This document shows positions 6,289-19,398 of a DNA stretch of 25,479 nt, piece by piece. The translations under genes and the position numbers were made by a program. The notes below the pieces were generated by a model that was not told the DNA's origin, did no database searches, and saw only the letters and a list, made by a program, of their open reading frames with translations. The stretch's first letter is position 1. Each line of letters opens with the position of its first letter. The stretch is from a virus (lineage: Duplodnaviria > Heunggongvirae > Uroviricota > Caudoviricetes): positions 1-25,479 of the IMG/VR virus record IMGVR_UViG_2531839473_000011, one strand, 5' to 3'.

Positions 6289-6803
6289 GCATAAGAGAAC
6301 TAAACCTCACCAAAGAACAGCACGATTGGCTGAATGGCTGGCTTGAACTGTGGGGCGCATGGGTTTATTCAGGCCGCCTGGAAAAGCGCATGAGCAGCGT
6401 AATAGCGAAGTTCATGGAGAGCGTAGAGCCGGGAAGAGTTATGACAAGGCCAATGTGTAATGATGATGATGGAATGTTGATTTCTCAGGTCGTCGATTCC
6501 GTCATGTACATTGACAAGAAAGCCTTTGGCATCCTCCTCAGCTACTACGCTCATGGTTCATCTAAGCGAGCAATTGCATCCTACTATCACGCGACTGCAA
6601 AGCCACGCAAGATGTGTGGGCGTGGTGGTGAGGGATGGAGAAAACCTTCACTGGCAACCTGTAGAAATGAAATTGACGACATCCTGAAAGCGTCGTTATT
6701 TGTTTTGTACCAACCAATGCAAAATGCTTTCAAAATGCGTAAACGTGTTGAGAAAGTTAAGCATGTTGCTGTTAAAAGCCTTGACATGCAATTAGCCATT
6801 TAG
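6285..6803 (+). CDS. Q: Late-gene antiterminator Q (P22 gene 23 / QuuD-type)
   Basis: 172 aa with LELWGAWVYSG and RPMCNDDDGMLI motifs characteristic of this Q family. It sits directly upstream of the late promoter and lysis genes. Confidence 0.8.
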   Translation: MSIRELNLTKEQHDWLNGWLELWGAWVYSGRLEKRMSSVIAKFMESVEPGRVMTRPMCNDDDGMLISQVVDSVMYIDKKAFGILLSYYAHGSSKRAIASYYHATAKPRKMCGRGGEGWRKPSLATCRNEIDDILKASLFVLYQPMQNAFKMRKRVEKVKHVAVKSLDMQLAI

Positions 6804-6810
6804 CCATAAT
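6781..6810 (+). promoter_or_regulatory. Candidate late promoter (PR'-like) embedded in the 3' end of Q
   Basis: TTGACA (6781-6786), 18-bp spacer, CATAAT (6805-6810). Position is appropriate for a Q-dependent late promoter. Sequence inspection only. Confidence 0.4.
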
Positions 6811-6820
6811 TAGAGGGTAA

Positions 6821-6864
6821 GCTGCCGTTAGTGACTCTTAAGTTGCAACGGTGGCTTTTTTGTT
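6821..6864 (+). terminator. Rho-independent terminator just downstream of the late promoter (tR'-like)
   Basis: 9-bp stem GCTGCCGTT (6821-6829) / AACGGTGGC (6847-6855) with two G-U pairs, then TTTTTTGTTTG. Confidence 0.5.
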
Positions 6865-7399
6865 TGCACAACAGGTAAGAGCATTGAACCCGCAGACCTC
6901 GCGGAATTGGTGAAAGGTGCCGCGCAGTACTCTTATCGTTGTGGTGAATACGCAGGCTGATGCGTTAATCAGGTGAACGAGACACCCGCCGGTCCGTGAT
7001 ATGGCACACCGTGCCGGTCATATCTGCCGCGGTTAGGTTTACGAGGATTTCGTAAAGCTGGTCTAGGGTTAAGCCGTGAAAGCGGAGGAAGTAAAACGAG
7101 GCGTCGGTACACGCCTATCGTCATTAAGTCGGAGTTCAGCACCGACCGCCACAACCCAAACTGAGCCGTAGCCACTGGCTGTCCTGAATTCATCAGTGAT
7201 AGTTATGCTGCGGCCTTCTACACATGACCTTCGTGAAAGCGGGTGGCAGGAGGTTGCGCTAACAACCTCATGCCGTTTTGCCCGTGCATATCGGTCACGA
7301 ACAAATCTGATTACTAAACACAGTAGCCTGGATTTGTTCTATCAGTAATCGACCTTATTCCTAATTAAATAGAGCAAATCCCCTTATTGGGGGTAAGAC

Positions 7400-7723
7400 A
7401 TGAAGATGCCAGAAAAACATGACCTGTTAGCCGCCATTCTCGCGGCAAAGGAACAAGGCATCGGGGCAATCCTTGCGTTTGCAATGGCGTACCTTCGCGG
7501 CAGATATAATGGCGGTGCGTTTACAAAAACAGTAATCGACGCAACGATGTGCGCCATTATCGCCTGGTTCATTCGTGACCTTCTCGACTTCGCCGGACTA
7601 AGTAGCAATCTCGCTTATATAACGAGCGTGTTCATCGGCTACATCGGTACTGACTCGATAGGTTCGCTTATCAAACGCTTCGCTGCTAAAAAAGCCGGAG
7701 TAGAAGATGGTGGAAATCAATAA
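7400..7723 (+). CDS. S: Holin, lambda S-type (class I) with dual-start motif
   Basis: 107 aa, essentially identical to lambda S as I recall it, including the Met1-Lys2-Met3 dual start (ATGAAGATG). The upstream leader also matches the lambda late leader. Confidence 0.92.
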
Positions 7724-8183
7724 TCAACGTAAGGCGTTCCTCGATATGCTGGCGTGGTCAGAGGGAACTGATAACGGACGACAGAAAACCAGAAATCATG
7801 GTTATGACGTCATTGTAGGCGGAGAGCTATTCACTGATTACTCAGATCACCCTCGCAAACTTGTCACGCTAAACCCAAAACTCAAATCAACAGCCGCCGG
7901 ACGTTACCAGCTTCTTTCCCGTTGGTGGGATGCCTACCGCAAGCAGCTTGGCCTGAAAGACTTCTCTCCGAAAAGCCAGGACGCTGTGGCACTGCAACAG
8001 ATTAAAGAGCGTGGCGCTTTACCGATGATTGACCGCGGTGATATTCGTCAGGCAATCGACCGTTGCAGTAATATCTGGGCTTCACTGCCTGGCGCTGGTT
8101 ATGGTCAGTTCGAGCATAAGGCTGACAGCCTGATTGCAAAATTCAAAGAAGCAGGCGGAACGGTCAGAGAGATTGAGGTATGA
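7707..8183 (+). CDS. R: Endolysin, lambda R-type lytic transglycosylase
   Basis: 158 aa, near-identical to lambda R. The start overlaps the end of S as in lambda. Confidence 0.92.
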
Positions 8184-8617
8184 GCAGAGTAACCGCGATT
8201 ATCTCCGCTCTGGTTATCTGCATCATCGTCTGCCTGTCATGGGCTGTTAATCATTACCGTGATAACGCAATCGCCTACAAAGAGCAGCGCGATAAAGCCA
8301 CGTACATCATCGCTGACATGCAGAAGCGTCAACGTGATGTAGCAGAACTCGACGCCAGATACACAAAGGAGCTTGCTGATGCTAACGCGACTATCGAAAG
8401 TCTCCGTGCTGATGTTTCTGCTGGTCGTAAGCGCCTGCAAGTCGCCGCCACCTGTGCAAAGTCAACGACCGGAGCCAGCAGCATGGGCGATGGAGAAAGC
8501 CCAAGACTTACAGCAGATGCTGAACTCAATTATTACCGTCTCCGAAGTGGAATCGACAGGATAACCGCGCAGGTTAACTACCTGCAGGAGTACATCAGGA
8601 CGCAATGCCTGAAATGA
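8180..8617 (+). CDS. Rz: Rz inner-membrane spanin (i-spanin)
   Basis: 145 aa with an N-terminal transmembrane segment and a coiled-coil periplasmic domain. Position and size match lambda Rz. Confidence 0.85.
8373..8564 (+). CDS. Rz1: Rz1 outer-membrane lipoprotein spanin, embedded in Rz in the +1 frame
   Basis: ORF fully inside Rz in another frame, with a signal-like stretch, lipobox-like VSAC and a proline-rich mature region ([14 protein letters not shown]). The true start may be an internal Met. Confidence 0.6.
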
Positions 8618-8652
8618 TCGGGCGATGAAAAACAAAAAAACAGGAGCAATAC

Positions 8653-8928
8653 ATGACTAAGCTTTATCACCGCATCTCAACTTTTCTCTCTGGTTGCTGG
8701 GCGTTTATCACGTCTATTTCGATCGCCATCTTTAGTTTCGGTAGCACAGCGTGCTCGCTTAGTCGGGGTCTGTGGCGTGCTATTTCAGCACTAGCGCCGA
8801 AATTTTTACCTGAAAAGGCTGTTTGGCGAATTGTAGAGCGAATGTGTAGTGAGAGCGTTCGCGAGAAGATTAACGTATTTGGACGTCATCCTCGAAATAC
8901 AGGCGCATTGTGCAGTCCGTTACTGTAG
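8653..8928 (+). CDS. Hypothetical protein (91 aa) with one hydrophobic segment
   Basis: ATG preceded by a strong RBS (ACAGGAGCAATAC-ATG). No recognisable family. Sits at the junction between the lysis and packaging modules. Confidence 0.35.
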   Translation: MTKLYHRISTFLSGCWAFITSISIAIFSFGSTACSLSRGLWRAISALAPKFLPEKAVWRIVERMCSESVREKINVFGRHPRNTGALCSPLL

Positions 8929-9222
8929 TCATTACAAAGCTCATCTACGGGTGGGCTTGATAATGAAACCGGAATTTATTCTGGGCAACCAGTTACGGCA
9001 GTACAGCGAAACAACCCAAGCCAGTAAGTGGGGAAATAACACTGGCAGCCACTGAAAGATGAACCTCCTGCCTTATGGCAAAAAAGATTCTTTGTGGTGG
9101 CGGACTGATGGAAAGACATCGGTTATTGCAGAGACCATTCAATGAGTGGTCTCGACAATAGCTTATACCCTACACGGGATAACTTAACTGATATCCCTTT
9201 TAACGGATAAACGGAGCCAACA

Positions 9223-9465
9223 ATGGCAGAGATTATTCCCATGACTGAAGAACAGAAATTCCAGTTAGAGATTTACAAACTGGTCATGAACCAGAACGCA
9301 GCCGCAGAGGAAGCATTTCAGTTCATTGGCACTGACGAACTGAAGCTTGAGCTATTCAAAATTCACTTCCAGTCAGGTGGCGCTAATTCAGATATCACGA
9401 CCAGAACTATCGAAGCGGTGCGTAAATCGAAGGAAGCGTTAGACCTGTTCACTACCGGAGCATGA
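9223..9465 (+). CDS. Hypothetical protein (80 aa), immediately upstream of the small terminase
   Basis: ATG preceded by AACGGAGCC. Acidic, predicted helical product. Conserved-position small ORF before the packaging genes. Confidence 0.5.
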   Translation: MAEIIPMTEEQKFQLEIYKLVMNQNAAAEEAFQFIGTDELKLELFKIHFQSGGANSDITTRTIEAVRKSKEALDLFTTGA

Positions 9466-9494
9466 TGCTCAACCTGAAATAACAACTAAGTGAG

Positions 9495-9989
9495 ATGAAT
9501 ATGGCAGCACCAAAGGGCAACCGATTTTGGGAGGCCCGCAGTAGTCATGGGCGAAATCCTAAATTCGAATCGCCTGAGGCGCTGTGGGCTGCTTGTTGTG
9601 AATACTTCGAGTGGGTGGAAGCTAACCCGCTATGGGAGATGAAGGCGTTCTCGTATCAGGGTGAAGTGATACAAGAGCCTATCGCCAAGATGCGAGCGAT
9701 GACCATTACCGGCCTCACTCTGTTCATTGATGTGACGCTTGAAACATGGCGCACATATCGCCTGAGAGAAGATTTATCTGAAGTCGTTACGCGAGCAGAG
9801 CAGGTCATCTACGATCAGAAATTCTCTGGCGCAGCCGCTGACCTTCTCAACGCTAACATCATCGCCCGTGATTTGGGCCTCAAAGAGCAGTCGCAAGTTG
9901 AAGACGTGACACCTGATAAGGGAGATCGCGATAAGCGACGCTCTCGTATCAAGGAGCTATTCAACCGTGGAACTGGACGCGATTCTTGA
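9495..9989 (+). CDS. Terminase small subunit (P22 gp3-type)
   Basis: Near-identical to P22 gp3 as I recall it (…[46 protein letters not shown]…). The second in-frame ATG at 9501 may be the true start. Confidence 0.85.
9768..9789 (+). other. pac-like packaging recognition site within the small terminase gene
   Basis: GAAGATTTATCTGAAGTCGTTA, matching the P22 pac sequence as I recall it, located inside the terS coding region as in P22. Confidence 0.6.
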
Positions 9990-11466
9990 TAACCTGAGCG
10001 ACGAAGAGCAAATCGAGTTGCTCGAGCTACTCGAAGAAGAAGAGAACTACCGGAACACACACCTGCTATATGAATTTACGCCATACAGCAAACAGCGTGA
10101 GTTCATCGACGCCGGACATGACTATCCAGAGCGATGTTTTATGGCTGGTAACCAGCTTGGTAAGTCATTTACTGGTGCTGCTGAAGTCGCGTTTCACCTT
10201 ACTGGGCGTTATCCGGGAACAAAAGGCTATCCGGCTGATGGTAAATATGGCGGGGAGTGGAAAGGTAAGCGTTTCTATGAGCCTGTTGTCTTCTGGATTG
10301 GTGGCGAGACAAACGAGACTGTAACCAAAACGACTCAACGCATCCTGTGCGGTCGTATCGAAGAGAATGGTGAACCTGGCTACGGTTCCATACCGAAAGA
10401 AGACATCATTAGCTGGAAGAAGTCTCCTTTCTTTCCGAACCTTGTTGATCACCTTCTGGTTAAGCATCACACGGCTGATGGCGTTGAAGATGGCATTTCA
10501 ATCTGTTACTTCAAACCATACTCGCAAGGCCGTGCTCGATGGCAGGGTGACACAATCCACGGTGTGTGGTTTGACGAAGAGCCACCATACAGCATTTATG
10601 GCGAAGGGCTTACCCGTACCAACAAATACGGGCAATTCTCAATTCTGACGTTTACCCCGCTGATGGGGATGTCTGACGTTGTTACCAAGTTCCTGAAGAA
10701 TCCCAGCAAGTCTCAGAAAGTGGTCAACATGACCATCTATGACGCTGAGCACTACACCGACGAGCAGAAAGAGCAAATCATCGCATCCTATCCTGAGCAT
10801 GAGAGAGAGGCGCGTGCTCGCGGTATTCCTACGATGGGTAGCGGGCGAATATTCCAGATACCGGAAGAGACGATTAAGTGTCAGCCGTTCGAGTGTCCTG
10901 ATCACTTCTACGTAATTGGCGGGATGGATTTCGGATGGGATCACCCGCAGGCGCATGTTCAGCTTTGGTGGGATAAAGACGCAGACACAATCTACGTTTC
11001 ACGCGTGTGGAAGGCGAAAGAAAAAACAGCCGTTCAGGCGTGGGGAGCCGTTAAATCATGGGCGCATAAAGTGCCAACCGCATGGCCTCATGACGGAAAC
11101 CAGCATGAGAAGGGCGGCGGTGAGCAGCTCAAAGGGCAGTATGCAGACGCTGGATTTATGATGTTACAGGAGCATGCGACATGGCCTGATGGCGGTAATG
11201 CTGTTGAGCCTGGCATCACTGAATTGCGCGACATGATGCTCGATGGTCGCTTCAAAGTATTCAACACCTGTGAGCCATTCTTTGAGGAGTTCCGCCTCTA
11301 TCACCGTGATGAAAACGGGAAAATCGTCAAGCTTAACGACGACGTTCTCTCAGCCGTTCGCTATGCATACATGATGCGCCGCTTTGCCAAAATGATGCGC
11401 GACATCAAAAAACCAAAAGAGAAAAAGATACCAGCCCCAATCAGGCCCATCGCACGGAGAACTTAA
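9967..11466 (+). CDS. Terminase large subunit (P22 gp2-type)
   Basis: 499 aa, same length and gene position as P22 gp2. Start (GTG at 9967) overlaps the end of terS. Confidence 0.9.
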
Positions 11467-16677: not shown

Positions 16678-18095
16678 TGCCGATTCAGCAACTTCCGCTT
16701 ATGAAAGGTGTCGGCAAAGACTTTCGAAACGCCGATTATATCGACTATCTGCCAGTGAATATGTTGGCTACACCCAAAGAAATCCTCAACAGCAGCGGAT
16801 ATCTTCGCTCATTCCCGGGCATTGCCAAACGTTCTGATGTGAACGGTATATCGCGCGGCGTCGAATACAACATGGCGCAGAGTGCTGTTTATCGCGTGTG
16901 TGGTGGGAAGCTCTACAAAGGCGAAAGCGAAGTCGGTGATGTTGCCGGAAGTGGTCGCGTATCAATGGCGCATGGTCGGACATCACAGGCGGTAGGCGTT
17001 AATGGTCAACTGGTTGAGTATCGCTATGATGGCACGGTTAAAACCGTCTCAAACTGGCCTACAGACAGCGGATTCACGCAGTATGAGTTAGGTTCGGTTC
17101 GCGACATTACGCGCTTGCGCGGGCGTTATGCGTGGTCAAAAGACGGAACTGATTCATGGTTTATCACTGACCCTGAAGACGAATCGCACCCTGACCGCTA
17201 CAGCGCACAATATCGCGCAGAATCGCAGCCTGACGGCATCATCGGCATCGGAACATGGCGAGACTTCATCGTATGCTTTGGTTCATCAACGATTGAATAT
17301 TTCTCCCTGACGGGTGCAACCACCGTTGGTGCTGCTTTGTATGTCGCACAGCCATCTCTTATGGTGCAGAAAGGCATTGCCGGGACTTACTGCAAAACGC
17401 CATTCGCTGATTCTTATGCGTTCATCAGCAATCCGGCAACGGGTGCGCCGTCTGTATACATCATCGGCTCCGGTCAGGTATCACCAATCGCCAGCGCGAG
17501 CATTGAGAAAATCCTCCGCTCCTACACTGCTGATGAACTGGCTGATGGCGTGATGGAGTCTCTGCGATTTGATGCGCATGAGTTGCTGATTATCCATCTT
17601 CCGCGCCATGTACTTGTGTACGACGCATCTTCAAGCGCTAATGGTCCGCAATGGTGTGTGCTGAAAACAGGCCTGTATGACGATGTGTACCGCGCTATCG
17701 ACTTCATTTTCGAAGGCAATCAGATAACGTGCGGCGATAAACTGGAACCCGTGACCGGGAAATTGCAATTCGACATCAGCAGCCAGTATGGTCTTCAACA
17801 GGAACACCTGCTGTTTACTCCACTCTTCAAAGCAGATAACGCCAGAGTTTTCGACCTTGAAGTTGAATCTTCAACTGGCGTTGCGCAGTATGCTGACCGC
17901 CTGTTCCTCTCTGCAACCACTGACGGCATAAATTATGGGCGTGAGCAGATGATTGAGCAGAATGAACCGTTCGTTTACGACAAACGCGTTTTGTGGAAAC
18001 GAGTAGGGCGCATCAGGAAAAACATTGGTTTCAAATTGCGCGTTATCACGAAGTCACCTGTCACTCTGTCTGGCGCTCAGATAAGGATTGAGTAA
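16677..18095 (+). CDS. Tail accessory protein (P22 gp10-type)
   Basis: 472 aa, same length and position as P22 gp10. Start overlaps the gp4 stop. Confidence 0.8.
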
Positions 18096-18943
18096 TGGCG
18101 GATTCGAATCTCAATGTGCCGGTAATCATTCAGGCTACACGACTCGACACATCAGTCCTTCCACGCAATATCTTCTCGCAGTCATATCTGCTGTACGTTA
18201 TTGCACAGGGCACTGATGTTGGTAACGTGGCTAACAAGGCCAACGAGGCCGGACAGGGCGCTTATGACGCACAAGTCAGGAACGATGAGCAGGATGTGAT
18301 TCTCGCTGACCATGAGCAGCGAATTTCTGCTGCGGAAGCAACGCTTGTTAATCATGAGGAGCGAATCAGCCAGGCAGAATCAACTCTTCAGGACCATGAA
18401 ACACGAATAGCTCAGAATGAAAGCGATATTTCGTCGCTTGACACAAGAGTTCAGTCGCTGGAGTCGCAGGTTTCAGACCATGAAACGCGCATCGATGCTC
18501 TGGAGTATGCCACTACTCGCAAGAAGTCGGAGGTTGTTTACTCTGGCGTATCTGTAACCATCCCGACAGCGCCGACCAACCTTGTTAGCCTACTGAAAAC
18601 TCTCACGCCGTCATCCGGCACGTTGGCACCATTCTTCGACACCGTTAACAACAAGATGGTTGTGTTCAACGAGAACAAAACCTTGTTCTTCAAGCTGTCG
18701 ATCGTCGGGACGTGGCCCAGCGGAACCGCCAACAGGTCAATGCAGCTAACATTTTCCGGTTCTGTTCCTGACACACTGGTAAGCAGTCGTAACTCTGCGA
18801 CAACAACCGATAACATCCTGTTAGCTACGTTCTTCAGCGTGGATAAAGACGGCTTTCTTGCCACAAATGGCAGCGCGTTAACCATTCAGTCGAATGGTGC
18901 GGCGTTTACTGCCACAACCATCAAAATCATTGCGGAGCAGTAA
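18095..18943 (+). CDS. Tail needle protein (gp26-type) with an extended C-terminal domain
   Basis: The N-terminal ~60 aa resemble the P22 gp26 N-terminus as I recall it. This is followed by tandem 14-residue coiled-coil repeats and a C-terminal region unlike P22 gp26. Confidence 0.75.
18305..18514 (+). repeat. Five diverged tandem 42-bp repeats encoding 14-residue units in the tail needle
   Basis: Protein units [14 protein letters not shown] / [14 protein letters not shown] / [14 protein letters not shown] / [14 protein letters not shown] / [14 protein letters not shown]. Confidence 0.6.
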
Positions 18944-19398
18944 TGATTCAGTTCAAACCAACGCGAAACATCGACCTGATCGAAGCAGTCGGAAATCACC
19001 CTGACATTATTGCCGGAAGCAACAATGGTGATGGATACGACTACAAGCCTGAATGCCGTTACTTTGAGGTTAACGTGCACGGTCAGTTTGGCGGAATTGT
19101 TTACTATCAGGAGATTCAGCCGCTGACATTCGATTGCCACGCCATGTACCTGCCAGAGATTCGCGGCTTCAGCAAGGAAATCGGGCTGGCGTTCTGGCGA
19201 TACATTCTGACTAACACCACCGTTCAGTGCGTCACATCGTTCGCTGCACGCAAATTCCGCCACGGGCAGATGTACTGCGCAATGATTGGCCTTAAGCGTG
19301 TAGGAACCATCAAGAAATACTTCAAAGGCGTGGATGACGTGACATTTTACAGTGCTACACGCGAAGAACTAATCGACTTCCTGAATCACGGGAGATAG
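18943..19398 (+). CDS. Virion assembly protein at the gp14 position
   Basis: 151-aa ORF between the tail needle and the ejection proteins. Assigned by synteny only. Confidence 0.45.
   Translation: MIQFKPTRNIDLIEAVGNHPDIIAGSNNGDGYDYKPECRYFEVNVHGQFGGIVYYQEIQPLTFDCHAMYLPEIRGFSKEIGLAFWRYILTNTTVQCVTSFAARKFRHGQMYCAMIGLKRVGTIKKYFKGVDDVTFYSATREELIDFLNHGR

Follow-up and report, generated by a model that had tools for sequence, protein, structure and literature searches.

We analysed 25,479 nt of Caudoviricetes DNA (the window), whose best matches over its whole length are Lederbergvirus phages. Between the lysis and packaging genes lie two small genes, a spacer and two copies of a hairpin, as follows.

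8180..8617, plus strand: Rz (i-spanin), 145 aa; PF03245, E 2.7e-36
8373..8564, plus strand: Rz1 (o-spanin lipoprotein), P22-type, embedded in Rz; PF06085, E 2.4e-20
8619..8928, plus strand: ORF91 cassette, a 34-nt leader with an RBS followed by the gene at 8653-8928 (91 aa); phrog_34701, which is HK140 gp68
8928..8967, plus strand: hairpin L; covariance model R1, 62.5 bits, E 7e-15 on the plus strand and 8.6 bits on the minus strand
8995..9138, plus strand: spacer core, homologue of P22G; 95.9% identity (146 nt) to P22G nt 59-204
9076..9162, plus strand: 28-codon open frame without an RBS; the start of ST64T orf118 maps to 9076
9122..9162, plus strand: hairpin R, loop UCAAUGA; R1, 46.1 bits, E 2.4e-10
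9163..9222, plus strand: orf80 leader with the RBS GGAG at 9213-9216; gap in the P22 alignment
9223..9465, plus strand: orf80, equivalent to P22 orf80 and HK620 hkbM, DUF2560, 80 aa; PF10834
9466..9494, plus strand: joint between orf80 and gene 3; P22 homology jumps from L001:3550 to 3720
9495..9989, plus strand: small terminase gp3, right border of the slot; PF16677, E 3.6e-33; phrog_606

The earlier note took S, R and Rz to be near-identical to their lambda counterparts. This holds for S and R, whose proteins are 99% identical to those of lambda (106 of 107 and 156 of 158 residues, respectively); the holin S matches PF05106. It does not hold for Rz, which has 58% amino acid identity to lambda Rz and 90% to P22 gp15, nor for Rz1 (37% to lambda, 92% to P22 Rz1). 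The lysis cassette is therefore lambda-type in S and R, but not in Rz and Rz1. Rz is a hybrid, in which the first ~20-35 codons are lambda-like and the remainder resembles P22 gp15. In windowed comparisons, nucleotide identity to lambda falls from 98% at 8180-8239 to 75% from 8300, and P22 identity, 68% before 8240, is 95% beyond it. Based on this fall and rise, the crossover lies inside Rz at ~8240-8300; blastn homology to lambda stops at 8428. The switch is thus ~350 bp upstream of 8618-9494, the stretch in which the join between lambda-type lysis genes and P22-type packaging genes had been placed, and this stretch is not the join.

The stretch 8618-9494 is the usual slot between lysis and packaging genes in which P22-like and other lambdoid phages swap accessory genes in and out. 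The note was correct in reading this region as mosaic and in comparing its position to that of lambda bor, which lies directly after Rz on the opposite strand, but the region is not one recombination joint. The alignment to lambda and P22 that the note proposed placed the switch in Rz, and comparison with further phages showed a slot of multiple cassettes with at least six separate breakpoints (8618/8619, 8925-8930, 8995, 9181/9209, 9304 and 9465/9468). P22 shares most of the stretch (8995-9181 at 92.6% and 9209-9467 at 95.8% nucleotide identity), and only 8619-8994 is absent from it. After Rz, N7 and HK140 have ORF91 like the window, P22 and ES18 have rha, HK620 and Stx2-1717 have hkbK/hkbL, and epsilon34 has gp67/68; E212, Huey and CUS-3 have other genes. 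The same arrangement extends from S to orf80 in N7 and from S to 9304 in HK140, and at least 80% of 8618-9494 is found in 93 E. coli genomes. Thus, the order of genes is already known from sequenced phages, as the note had allowed, although no function has been assigned to either small ORF. As an arrangement, this is ordinary phage mosaicism; modestly new are the hairpin family and the overlooked gene ORF91.

Neither strand of 8400-9700 has a promoter-like site, and the same region contains only two weak terminator-like sites, which is at chance level. A scan of 6500-10500 with the Rfam 15 covariance models (E <= 1) returned only a spurious snoU85 match at 7300-7346, and no tRNA was found in the window.

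ORF91 had been noticed for a strong RBS and one hydrophobic segment. Both are present: AGGAG lies 8 nt before the ATG, and the Kyte-Doolittle maximum over 19 residues is 1.78, at residues 11-29. The gene starts only 35 nt after the Rz stop codon, and the edges of its cassette are the breaks in homology to E212 and P22, at 8618 and 8930. A profile search, as suggested for both ORFs, identified orf80 as DUF2560 and matched ORF91 only to phrog_34701 (E 7.7e-56, positions 1-91 of 91), whose function is unassigned. Sequence profiles from Pfam, NCBIfam, PADLOC and the PDB gave no match to ORF91, and a profile search of 1.84 billion representatives found 16 proteins with no tie to a known family, all in the same size class except one 53-aa fragment. 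Homologues form 53 clusters, nearly all of 84-93 aa, and always occur directly after spanin genes, in diverse phages with non-homologous lysis cassettes. The protein has a hydrophobic helix at its N-terminus and ends in a basic part of 37 residues that hardly vary. In the codons for this part (55-91), 21 of 25.5 synonymous sites are changed vs. 3 of 85.5 non-synonymous sites, so dN/dS is about 0.06 or lower, with dS saturated. Judged by these substitutions, ORF91 is a real gene and strongly constrained. Of 5,426 E. coli genomes, 113 have it, and 29 of 30 among the matches listed carry no annotation for it. RefSeq annotation skips this family, which is under strong purifying selection, in about 2% of complete E. 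coli genomes.

The AlphaFold2 model of ORF91 (pLDDT 59, C-terminus disordered) is too poor for a fold search, and in some homologues the hydrophobic segment is borderline as a membrane span (Kyte-Doolittle 1.2-1.8). We regard the product as a putative membrane-anchored late accessory protein. With no sigma-70 promoter site upstream in the region scanned, ORF91 lacks the promoter typical of a moron, which has its own promoter and terminator and is expressed from the prophage. Elsewhere the slot holds anti-defence genes, namely Tad2-like genes and genes annotated as anti-CRISPR, and ORF91 is therefore a cheap candidate for functional screens.

The second ORF that the note listed, orf80, is a full-length DUF2560 protein (147.7 bits to PF10834, where the cut-off is 25; profile positions 1-72 of 72) and has 95.8% nucleotide identity to P22 orf80. 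AlphaFold2 predicts a four-helix bundle (pLDDT 86.9), for which Foldseek found no matching fold in the PDB (E > 4). A search of BFVD returned only uncharacterised phage proteins, a profile search of the PDB only noise, and a literature search on DUF2560 and hkbM nothing functional. Annotations of P22, HK620, CUS-3, epsilon34 and E212 place the gene among the last small genes before the terminase. It is directly upstream of the small terminase in the window and in CUS-3, while one small ORF intervenes in P22 and HK620; this ORF (P22 orf59c, HK620 hkbN) is missing at the joint. Homology to N7 ends at 9463, and the N7 terminase is HK620-type. The terminase in the window is P22-type, as the note stated, based on PF16677 and on 99% nucleotide identity to P22 gene 3 over 9468-9764. 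The gp3-family small terminase is followed by P22-like gp2 and portal genes, as in a P22-type packaging module.

The note had also remarked on about 300 bp with no convincing ORF. In this spacer (8929-9222), the longest ORF on either strand has at most 68 aa. The 28-codon frame at 9076..9162 corresponds to the N-terminal part of orf118 of ST64T and L, and the epsilon34 annotation describes this stretch as "similar to the N-terminus of ST64T orf118"; it is probably not a gene here. The predicted minimum free energy of the spacer is -101.2 kcal/mol, compared to -69.3 +/- 4.3 for shuffled sequences (z -7.4 on the plus strand, z -2.9 on the minus strand), which makes it the most structured RNA of 338 windows across the 25 kb. 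The core occurs in 210 phage records at 80-99% identity, and seven full-length spacer homologues are present among the loci examined. In an alignment of 12 phages, about 100 nt of the core are invariant. Covariation therefore cannot test the rest of the predicted fold, and an analysis of the whole spacer has no power in these 12 sequences.

The note had suggested looking for transcripts from 8930-9222. A published answer exists for the P22 homologue only: P22G, an sncRNA reported in 2026 as a stable plus-strand RNA from the homologous stretch (PMC13397905). It is described as a discrete 204-nt species, for which infected cells gave 488 RPM and vesicles 374 RPM, and is reported only as a read cluster in P22 with no known function (PMC13397905). 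The spacer core lies on the same strand and matches the 3' 146 nt of P22G (PMC13397905, Table 2). P22G has its 5' end inside rha, a gene that the window does not have, and its 3' end inside hairpin R. The hairpin suggests an origin for this RNA, which may be a decay fragment. Neither the hairpin family nor its covariation appears to have been part of that report (PMC13397905).

The hairpins belong to a 40-nt family with the pattern CAUUA-CA-[9-bp variable stem and loop]-GA-UAAUG, built of a lower stem, a 2x2 internal loop, an upper stem and a tetraloop, which is UACG in hairpin L. Folding is confined to the sense strand, the stems carry compensatory changes, and mosaic breakpoints fall at the hairpins. 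The stem of hairpin L begins at the first base past the ORF91 stop codon. Eight phages break homology at 8924-8930, and homology to E212, L, ST64T, HK620, HK022, Huey, ES18 and Stx2-1717 has its left edge at hairpin L. Joints at hairpin R are an insertion in Huey and a deletion in Stx2-1717 that fuses L with R. The loop of hairpin R contains the start codon of P22 orf25, and one of its pairs varies among phages (A-U, G.U or G-C).

Relatives of these hairpins occur in prophages across Enterobacterales (Enterobacteriaceae, Morganellaceae, Serratia and Pantoea). All matches are on the gene-sense strand, with the stem directly after a stop codon in 37 of 84. In the family alignment 96.6% of cells are paired, compared to 31-50% in slid controls, although pairing in the inner stem is inflated because the first set had been selected by sequence pattern and by folding energy. 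Double changes occur in 10 of 15 pairs, and covariation is 0.508 vs. 0.202, with none of 500 shuffles reaching the observed value. The unbiased parts of the evidence are the flank pairs and a bimodal genome scan. Neither the search pattern nor the fold filter covers pair 3-40, which is CG in 33 copies, UA in 6 and UG in 6, and unpaired in none. The independent scan of genomes found the flank pair intact in 63 of 65 true hairpins vs. 25 of 55 chance matches. Across the groups named above, pairing persists even in copies whose inner stems differ at most positions. The excess of UNCG tetraloops (25 of 57, compared to 1.6% expected), together with 138 G.U pairs, points to RNA on the plus strand. 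The family has no Rfam match, and literature searches with its sequence strings gave no text match.

The sequence 3' of hairpin L is GAAACCGG and that 3' of hairpin R is GCUUAUAC. Neither hairpin is followed by a U-tract, nor is there a terminator-like site there on the plus strand. The hairpins are therefore not intrinsic (Rho-independent) terminators. We rejected GATAAT/TTGATA as a promoter element, given the empty promoter scan and the wrong spacing (the 22 bp from ATTACA to GATAAT are too far for sigma-70). The AUG of GAUAAUG was likewise rejected as a gene start: the downstream frames have 4-30 codons and are unconserved, and 6 of 45 copies have AUA.

We think it reasonably probable that this locus is a variable slot of a P22-like (Lederbergvirus) E. 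coli phage, made up of the ORF91 cassette, a stable RNA spacer and orf80, with cassettes that end in hairpins. The slot would be read as part of the Q-antiterminated late transcript; the promoter scan was empty. A member of the hairpin family would directly follow the stop codon of each cassette and form its end, and hairpin R would close the spacer to which P22G corresponds. In the late mRNA, the hairpins might act as processing elements or protect 3' ends; such a role is plausible by analogy. Their conserved outer arms could provide the short homology at which cassettes are exchanged by phage or host recombination.

It is unlikely that the spacer is instead a free-standing trans-acting sRNA, homologous to P22G and directed at host or phage targets, with the hairpins as its structural modules. 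The discrete size of P22G in cells and vesicles (PMC13397905) would fit such an RNA, as would the close match of the homologue in the window, its ultraconserved core and its very stable fold. However, the spacer has neither a promoter-like site nor a terminator, no target is known, and ends in rha and in hairpin R are what would be expected of a fragment from processing or decay of the late mRNA. Moreover, genes of 44 unrelated families, tail-tube genes among them, are also followed by hairpins of this family at places far from any P22G-like sequence.

The spacer could also consist of decaying gene remnants, with hairpins that have no function, but we consider this quite improbable. The remnant of ST64T orf118 and a frame like P22 orf25 lie in the spacer, and no covariation is measurable outside the hairpins. 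In addition, identities of 90-99% among phages are typical of recently exchanged modules and could simply reflect recent spread. However, the spacer is 93% identical to P22 and the holin only 83%, such that the core is kept better than the flanking genes. The fold z-score is also the extreme of the whole window, and diverged hairpin copies have kept their pairing in all the groups where the family occurs.

A wider role for the hairpin is likewise a long shot: it might be the recognition element of an unrecognised system of Enterobacterales temperate phages, either for an RNA-binding or processing factor or as a single-strand recombination site. If an RNA factor were involved, the system would set the stoichiometry of late gene products. 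If DNA were recognised, the slot would be a true array that collects anti-defence and accessory genes (Tad2-like, Rha, KilA-N, ORF91).

We consider it very unlikely that the hairpins are folded single-strand DNA recombination sites, like integron attC or REP/RAYT-like elements, in a site-specific cassette array. They resemble such sites in being strand-specific, imperfect hairpins whose outer arms are conserved, whose 2x2 internal loop is fixed and whose inner stem is free, and they lie directly after cassette stop codons, at insertion and deletion joints. However, no dedicated recombinase (IntI or RAYT) was noticed in the neighbouring gene tables, the contexts span very different phages, and some copies follow core structural genes (tail tube) rather than cassettes. 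Many breakpoints in the slot are away from the hairpins (8995, 9041, 9181 and 9304), and both the excess of UNCG tetraloops and the many G.U pairs are easier to reconcile with RNA than with DNA. Finally, the view that 8618-9494 holds one single joint, where a lambda-type lysis cassette meets P22-type packaging genes, has virtually no chance of being correct despite the lambda-like S and R and the P22-like sequence from gene 3 on. It is refuted by the windowed identities that put the switch in Rz; moreover, resemblance to P22 extends to Rz1, the spacer core and orf80, and several breakpoints against different phages are independent.

Returning to the slot with hairpin-ended cassettes, a close counterpart is the segment between gene 15 and gene 3 of P22 (NC_002371), which is at the same position and holds rha, orf25, pid, orf80 and orf59c. 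P22 and the window have in common orf80, the spacer core with hairpin R (92.6%), and the flanking Rz/Rz1 and gene 3. ORF91 and hairpin L occur where P22 has rha, and the window lacks the ~630-bp pid moron and orf59c. In P22, orf25 and orf80 are separated by pid, which is encoded on the opposite strand (PMC3573128, PMC8835761), and its insertion point is in the orf80 leader, between 9181 and 9209. HK620 has hkbK-hkbL-[unannotated 352 bp]-hkbM-hkbN in the same slot. Its cassette genes differ (KilA-N), but it has both hairpins and the spacer, with 97% identity to the window over 8982-9467.

The proposal resembles the "boundary sequences" at module borders of Clark et al. 2001, as cited in PMC3029335, where short conserved border sequences are said to promote exchange. 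It is an old question whether lambdoid phages exchange modules under the guidance of linker or boundary sequences; the hairpin is a concrete, testable handle on this, and on what else such sequences do in mRNA. In prophages from Escherichia to Proteus and Xenorhabdus, it marks where many late and accessory genes, unrelated to each other, have their 3' ends. Lambda bor, which is expressed from the prophage, directly follows the spanin genes as ORF91 does. Unlike bor, ORF91 is on the late-operon strand and has no promoter, and the 4.5-kb right end of lambda has no copy of the hairpin.

Another parallel is the PeSL motif of T4-like phages, a stem-loop at cassette borders in hyperplastic regions (PMC2839356, PMC4122927). 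In both cases, repeated stem-loops flank small accessory genes and coincide with joints of insertion, deletion or replacement. However, PeSLs combine an early promoter with a terminator-like stem-loop, while the hairpin described here has neither promoter nor U-tract, has a fixed internal loop and belongs to temperate phages of Enterobacterales. T7-like phages have intercistronic RNase III hairpins, and REP-type hairpins act as 3' stabilisers. The present family is similar in having hairpins with internal loops directly after coding regions in a polycistronic phage mRNA. It differs in other sequence features, in not being GC-rich like REP, and in its helix of ~17 bp, which is shorter than in classic RNase III sites. 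The hairpin thus resembles an RNase III site by architecture only, and is a candidate processing site.

The interval 8618-9494, between the lysis cassette and the P22-type packaging genes, is a multi-cassette accessory slot, not one joint. The window belongs to an E. coli phage or prophage of the P22-like group (Lederbergvirus), with HZ41, IME10 and APC_JM3.2 as nearest relatives (~95-96% identity across 52-67% of the window). The late operon control region is P22/lambda-like; 6856-6965 has 93.6% identity to the P22 late promoter/qut region (L001:55-164) and to E212. The coordinates and ORFs given for the interval in an earlier note agree with the gene tables of the window.

Genes and features of the window around the slot
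7400-7723, holin S
7707-8183, endolysin R
8180-8617, + strand, Rz
8373-8564, + strand, Rz1, inside Rz
8653-8928, + strand, ORF91 (91 aa)
8929-9222, ORF-poor spacer
9223-9465, + strand, ORF80 (80 aa)
9495-9989, + strand, small terminase gp3
9967-11466, large terminase

The earlier note described S, R and Rz as near-identical to lambda and located the lambda/P22 join inside 8618-9494. The S and R proteins do have 99% identity to those of lambda, but Rz matches P22 gp15 at 90% and lambda Rz at only 58%, and Rz1 matches its P22 counterpart at 92% versus 37% for that of lambda. Compared in successive 60-nt blocks, Rz matches lambda at 98, 90, 75, 77, 62 ... % and P22 at 68, 95, 90, 97, 95, 98, 100 ... 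%. Therefore, the join was misplaced: the switch lies at ~8240-8300, within Rz and upstream of the interval. Beyond it, P22 homology occurs in patches at 8214-8618 (94%), 8995-9181 (92.6%), 9209-9467 (95.8%, orf80) and 9468-9764 (99%, gene 3). The lambda moron bor is indeed at the equivalent position, directly after Rz on the opposite strand. At least 80% of 8618-9494 is found in 93 of 5,426 complete E. coli genomes and the same arrangement occurs in sequenced phages, and it is therefore not unusual; the single junction as claimed is largely an ordinary, already sequenced arrangement. The new content is modest: an overlooked conserved gene, ORF91, and a hairpin family marking cassette ends across enterobacterial temperate phages.

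Variable genes occupy the interval from the Rz stop codon to the conserved spacer, phage by phage.

Slot content in the compared phages
P22 and ES18: rha
HK620 and Stx2 phage 1717: hkbK (KilA-N) and hkbL
epsilon34: gp67 and gp68
E212: "DNA-binding protein"
Huey: genes annotated anti-CRISPR
The window, N7 and HK140: ORF91

E212 is collinear with the window to 8618 and resumes at 8930; therefore, the ORF91 cassette is exactly 8619-8929. P22 has ~630 additional bases between 9181 and 9209, where the pid moron, which has been studied experimentally, lies on the opposite strand between orf25 and orf80 (PMC8835761). P22 orf59c/HK620 hkbN is absent from the window between orf80 and gene 3. N7 shares all parts of the region as far as 9463, and its terminase is of HK620 type. 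Homology to two HK97-like siphoviruses, HK140 and HK022, extends to 9304, inside orf80, and is lost beyond, the next gene in HK140 being an HNH endonuclease. Only the first 82 nt of orf80 are kept in HK140 (L002 2325-2462) and HK022 (L017), annotated as a 45-aa ORF (phrog_23132). In HK140 the remnant precedes the endonuclease gene, so that a mosaic joint falls within a gene. Elsewhere (IMG/VR loci such as L045 and L084; Huey, L020 691-1191 and 1426-1806), the slot carries Tad2-like (anti-Thoeris, PF11195) and anti-CRISPR-annotated genes, each terminating in a hairpin of the 40-nt family described below. The lysis-terminase slot may be an anti-defence island.

The earlier note regarded both small ORFs as being of unknown function. 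Profile searches placed ORF80 in DUF2560 (PF10834, 147.7 bits) and matched ORF91 only to phrog_34701, full-length, and assigned a function to neither.

ORF91, which is HK140 gp68, is a real gene whose protein is under constraint. Among 5.8 billion proteins its relatives form 53 clusters from Escherichia, Enterobacter and Citrobacter, nearly all of 84-93 aa and 54-98% identity. Of 5,426 E. coli genomes, 113 carry the gene; in a set of 50,697 phage records it is confined to N7, the two records of HK140 and a single Klebsiella phage. The N-terminal half is variable, but residues 55-91 (AxWRIVERMCSESVREKINVFGRHPRNTGALCSPLL) hardly change. When the window is compared with an Enterobacter homologue, codons 55-91 have changes at 21 of 25.5 synonymous sites versus 3 of 85.5 non-synonymous sites, so the conservation of the tail is at the protein level, not DNA identity; the N-terminal part has a dN/dS of 0.2-0.5. 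Under this strong purifying selection, the gene is yet unannotated by RefSeq in 29 of 30 among the matches listed (query 8640-8928).

Homologues of ORF91 are always directly 3′ of the spanin gene(s), and their other neighbours are mutually unrelated holins (Pfam families 2_1, 3_1, 3_3 and 8), endolysins (lysozyme, GH19, GH108 and lambda R) and terminases (gp3, Terminase_2, Terminase_3 and DUF2280). The protein has a single hydrophobic helix (KD 1.78 in the window, 1.2-1.8 across the family) and is basic outside it (net charge +3 to +9), which, by the positive-inside rule, suggests an N-out/C-in membrane anchor with a cytoplasmic tail. Its AlphaFold model is a long helix with a disordered conserved tail (pLDDT 59). 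No relative was found in Pfam, NCBIfam, PADLOC or PDB, and a profile search added none. A scan found no promoter ahead of ORF91, so expression is expected late, with the lysis genes, unlike that of bor. Our best guess, held with low confidence, is that it encodes an accessory protein, made late and associated with the membrane, and that the invariant tail might bind a conserved host or phage partner. Given the Tad2-like anti-Thoeris genes and Rha/KilA-N proteins elsewhere in the slot, a role in anti-defence or host takeover and one related to lysis are equally likely.

ORF80 is P22 orf80/HK620 hkbM, and DUF2560 is restricted to Enterobacterales (Escherichia, Salmonella, Shimwellia and Serratia). 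AlphaFold2 (25-sequence alignment) gave a confident four-helix protein (pLDDT 86.9, pTM 0.74) that matched no solved structure (all E > 4) and, in BFVD, uncharacterised phage proteins only (TM 0.87, 0.75 and 0.69). We found no functional literature on DUF2560/hkbM, and the only lead on its role is positional: it is always one of the last small genes ahead of the small terminase. In ST64T (L015 1647-2003) and phage L (L014), the N-terminus of orf118 is read from the spacer (9076 onward) through the downstream hairpin (9122-9162), then enters a divergent DUF2560 body with an orf80-like end; the matching parts of the window are 9076-9174, 9212-9235 and 9430-9463. This protein looks like a fusion. 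"DUF2560" proteins of 118-129 aa also occur, with 100% identity to the 80-aa core.

The spacer (8929-9222) is present at 80-99% identity in 210 phage records, mostly unannotated, of P22-like podoviruses and lambdoid siphoviruses. As RNA, its + strand folds at -101.2 kcal/mol versus -69.3 +/- 4.3 for dinucleotide shuffles (z -7.4), and its - strand has a z of -2.9. In a 150-nt scan across the window, 9076-9225 was the most structured of 338 segments (z -6.6). The second, 7126-7275 (z -5.2 on +, -1.3 on -), lies downstream of the late promoter and upstream of the holin gene, with lambda homology beginning at 7150, and probably corresponds to the leader region in which the P22 sncRNA "P22E" was reported. 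Strong + strand structure also occurs at 9526-9675, within the gene 3 coding region (z -4.4). A further strand-specific structured segment, 18826-18975 (+ strand z -4.5, - strand z -0.7), lies where ORFs 18095-18943 and 18943-19398 meet.

The spacer core is a homologue of P22G (8995-9138 versus P22G nt 59-204, 95.9% identity), a stable 204-nt + strand small RNA from P22-infected Salmonella, published in June 2026 without a known function (PMC13397905). A stable, strand-specific RNA could be a trans-acting sRNA. However, the P22G ends lie within rha (5′) and within the downstream hairpin (3′), and a scan of the spacer found no promoter or terminator for the homologue; we therefore infer that P22G is a stable fragment of late mRNA. 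Because ~100 nt of the core do not vary at all among 12 phages, covariation has no bearing on the rest of the fold.

The spacer opens and nearly closes with two related hairpins (8928-8967 and 9122-9162), the only two copies that a covariance model found in the window. The family to which they belong has an outer stem of 6-8 bp (CAUUA/UAAUG, extended by one or two pairs that covary), a 2x2 internal loop that is always CA/GA and a 9-bp inner stem that starts RAG/CUY, is otherwise free and is capped by a tetraloop. An IMG/VR pattern scan gave 119 loci, from which 45 distinct foldable variants were aligned: 96.6% of cells are paired versus 31-50% with the partner slid, double changes occur at 10 of 15 pairs, and the covariation score is 0.508 versus 0.202 in shuffles (0/500), the inner stem being partly biased because the set was chosen by pattern and folding energy. 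Two observations are free of this bias. Pair 3-40, outside both filters, is CG in 33, UA in 6 and UG in 6, and never unpaired. A separate, independent scan, in which each species was represented by a single genome, split cleanly into 65 matches that keep 5 or 6 of the 6 inner pairs versus 55 chance matches with 0-4, and the flank pair is preserved in 63/65 versus 25/55. The true hairpins, whose inner stems are lineage-specific, occur in Escherichia, Enterobacter, Klebsiella, Raoultella, Serratia, Pantoea, Sodalis, Proteus, Providencia, Morganella and Xenorhabdus. None was found in the 4.5-kb lambda right end. The family has no match in Rfam 15 and we found no paper containing its sequence; it is well supported and, as far as these searches show, undescribed.

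In 84 of 114 cases, versus 32 in the antisense control, a frame on the same strand and 50 or more codons long terminates at the hairpin, and in 37 cases the stem starts at the first base past the stop codon. The genes upstream belong to 44 families, including Big_2-containing tail-tube proteins (32, mainly from Morganellaceae), hkbL-like (19), Tad2-like (14), ORF91 (9), LysC (8), Rz (7) and Gp49/Sf6-66 (7). In Morganellaceae prophages (Proteus, L146 2010-2800; Xenorhabdus, L162 2624-3411; Providencia, L217), the hairpin follows the tail-tube gene directly and precedes a conserved gene of ~230 aa. Core structural genes thus precede hairpins too, not accessory cassettes alone. In a metagenomic phage (L007 4283-4456), a canonical bidirectional intrinsic terminator, and no hairpin, follows a 93-aa ORF91 homologue; the hairpin instead follows the next gene (LysA, PF28015).

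Homology to the window is lost or gained at 8924-8930, the 5′ edge of the upstream hairpin, in eight phages. Stx2 phage 1717 joins this hairpin to the 3′ flank of the downstream one, the intervening sequence being deleted, and in Huey an additional gene, which carries a hairpin copy of its own, is inserted at 9121. Such joints could indicate a DNA-level site-specific recombination site. However, others lie away from hairpins (8995, 9041, 9181 and 9304), and the hairpins thus behave as shared "linker" homology, not as sole crossover points. Furthermore, G.U pairs (138 of 1,097), UNCG tetraloops (25 of 57 versus 1.6% expected) and a model score of 62.5 bits on the + strand versus 8.6 on the - strand point to sense-strand RNA. 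Functionless remnants would hardly keep covarying pairs.

The hairpins are selected for sense-strand pairing and placed at cassette 3′ ends and joints. We propose that they act in late mRNA, where they would be processing or 3′-protective elements, and that their conserved arms could supply ~15-40 nt of homology for cassette swapping by RecA or phage single-strand-annealing proteins. In their build, two stems around an internal loop immediately past a stop codon, the hairpins are reminiscent of phage RNase III sites. The comparisons here show that the slot itself consists of exchangeable late-operon cassettes. Among described concepts, the closest are the boundary sequences that Clark et al. 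2001 (as cited in PMC3029335) proposed for lambdoid phages and, in T4-like phages, the PeSL motif (PMC2839356, PMC4122927), from which the hairpin family differs in having neither a promoter nor a terminator tail.
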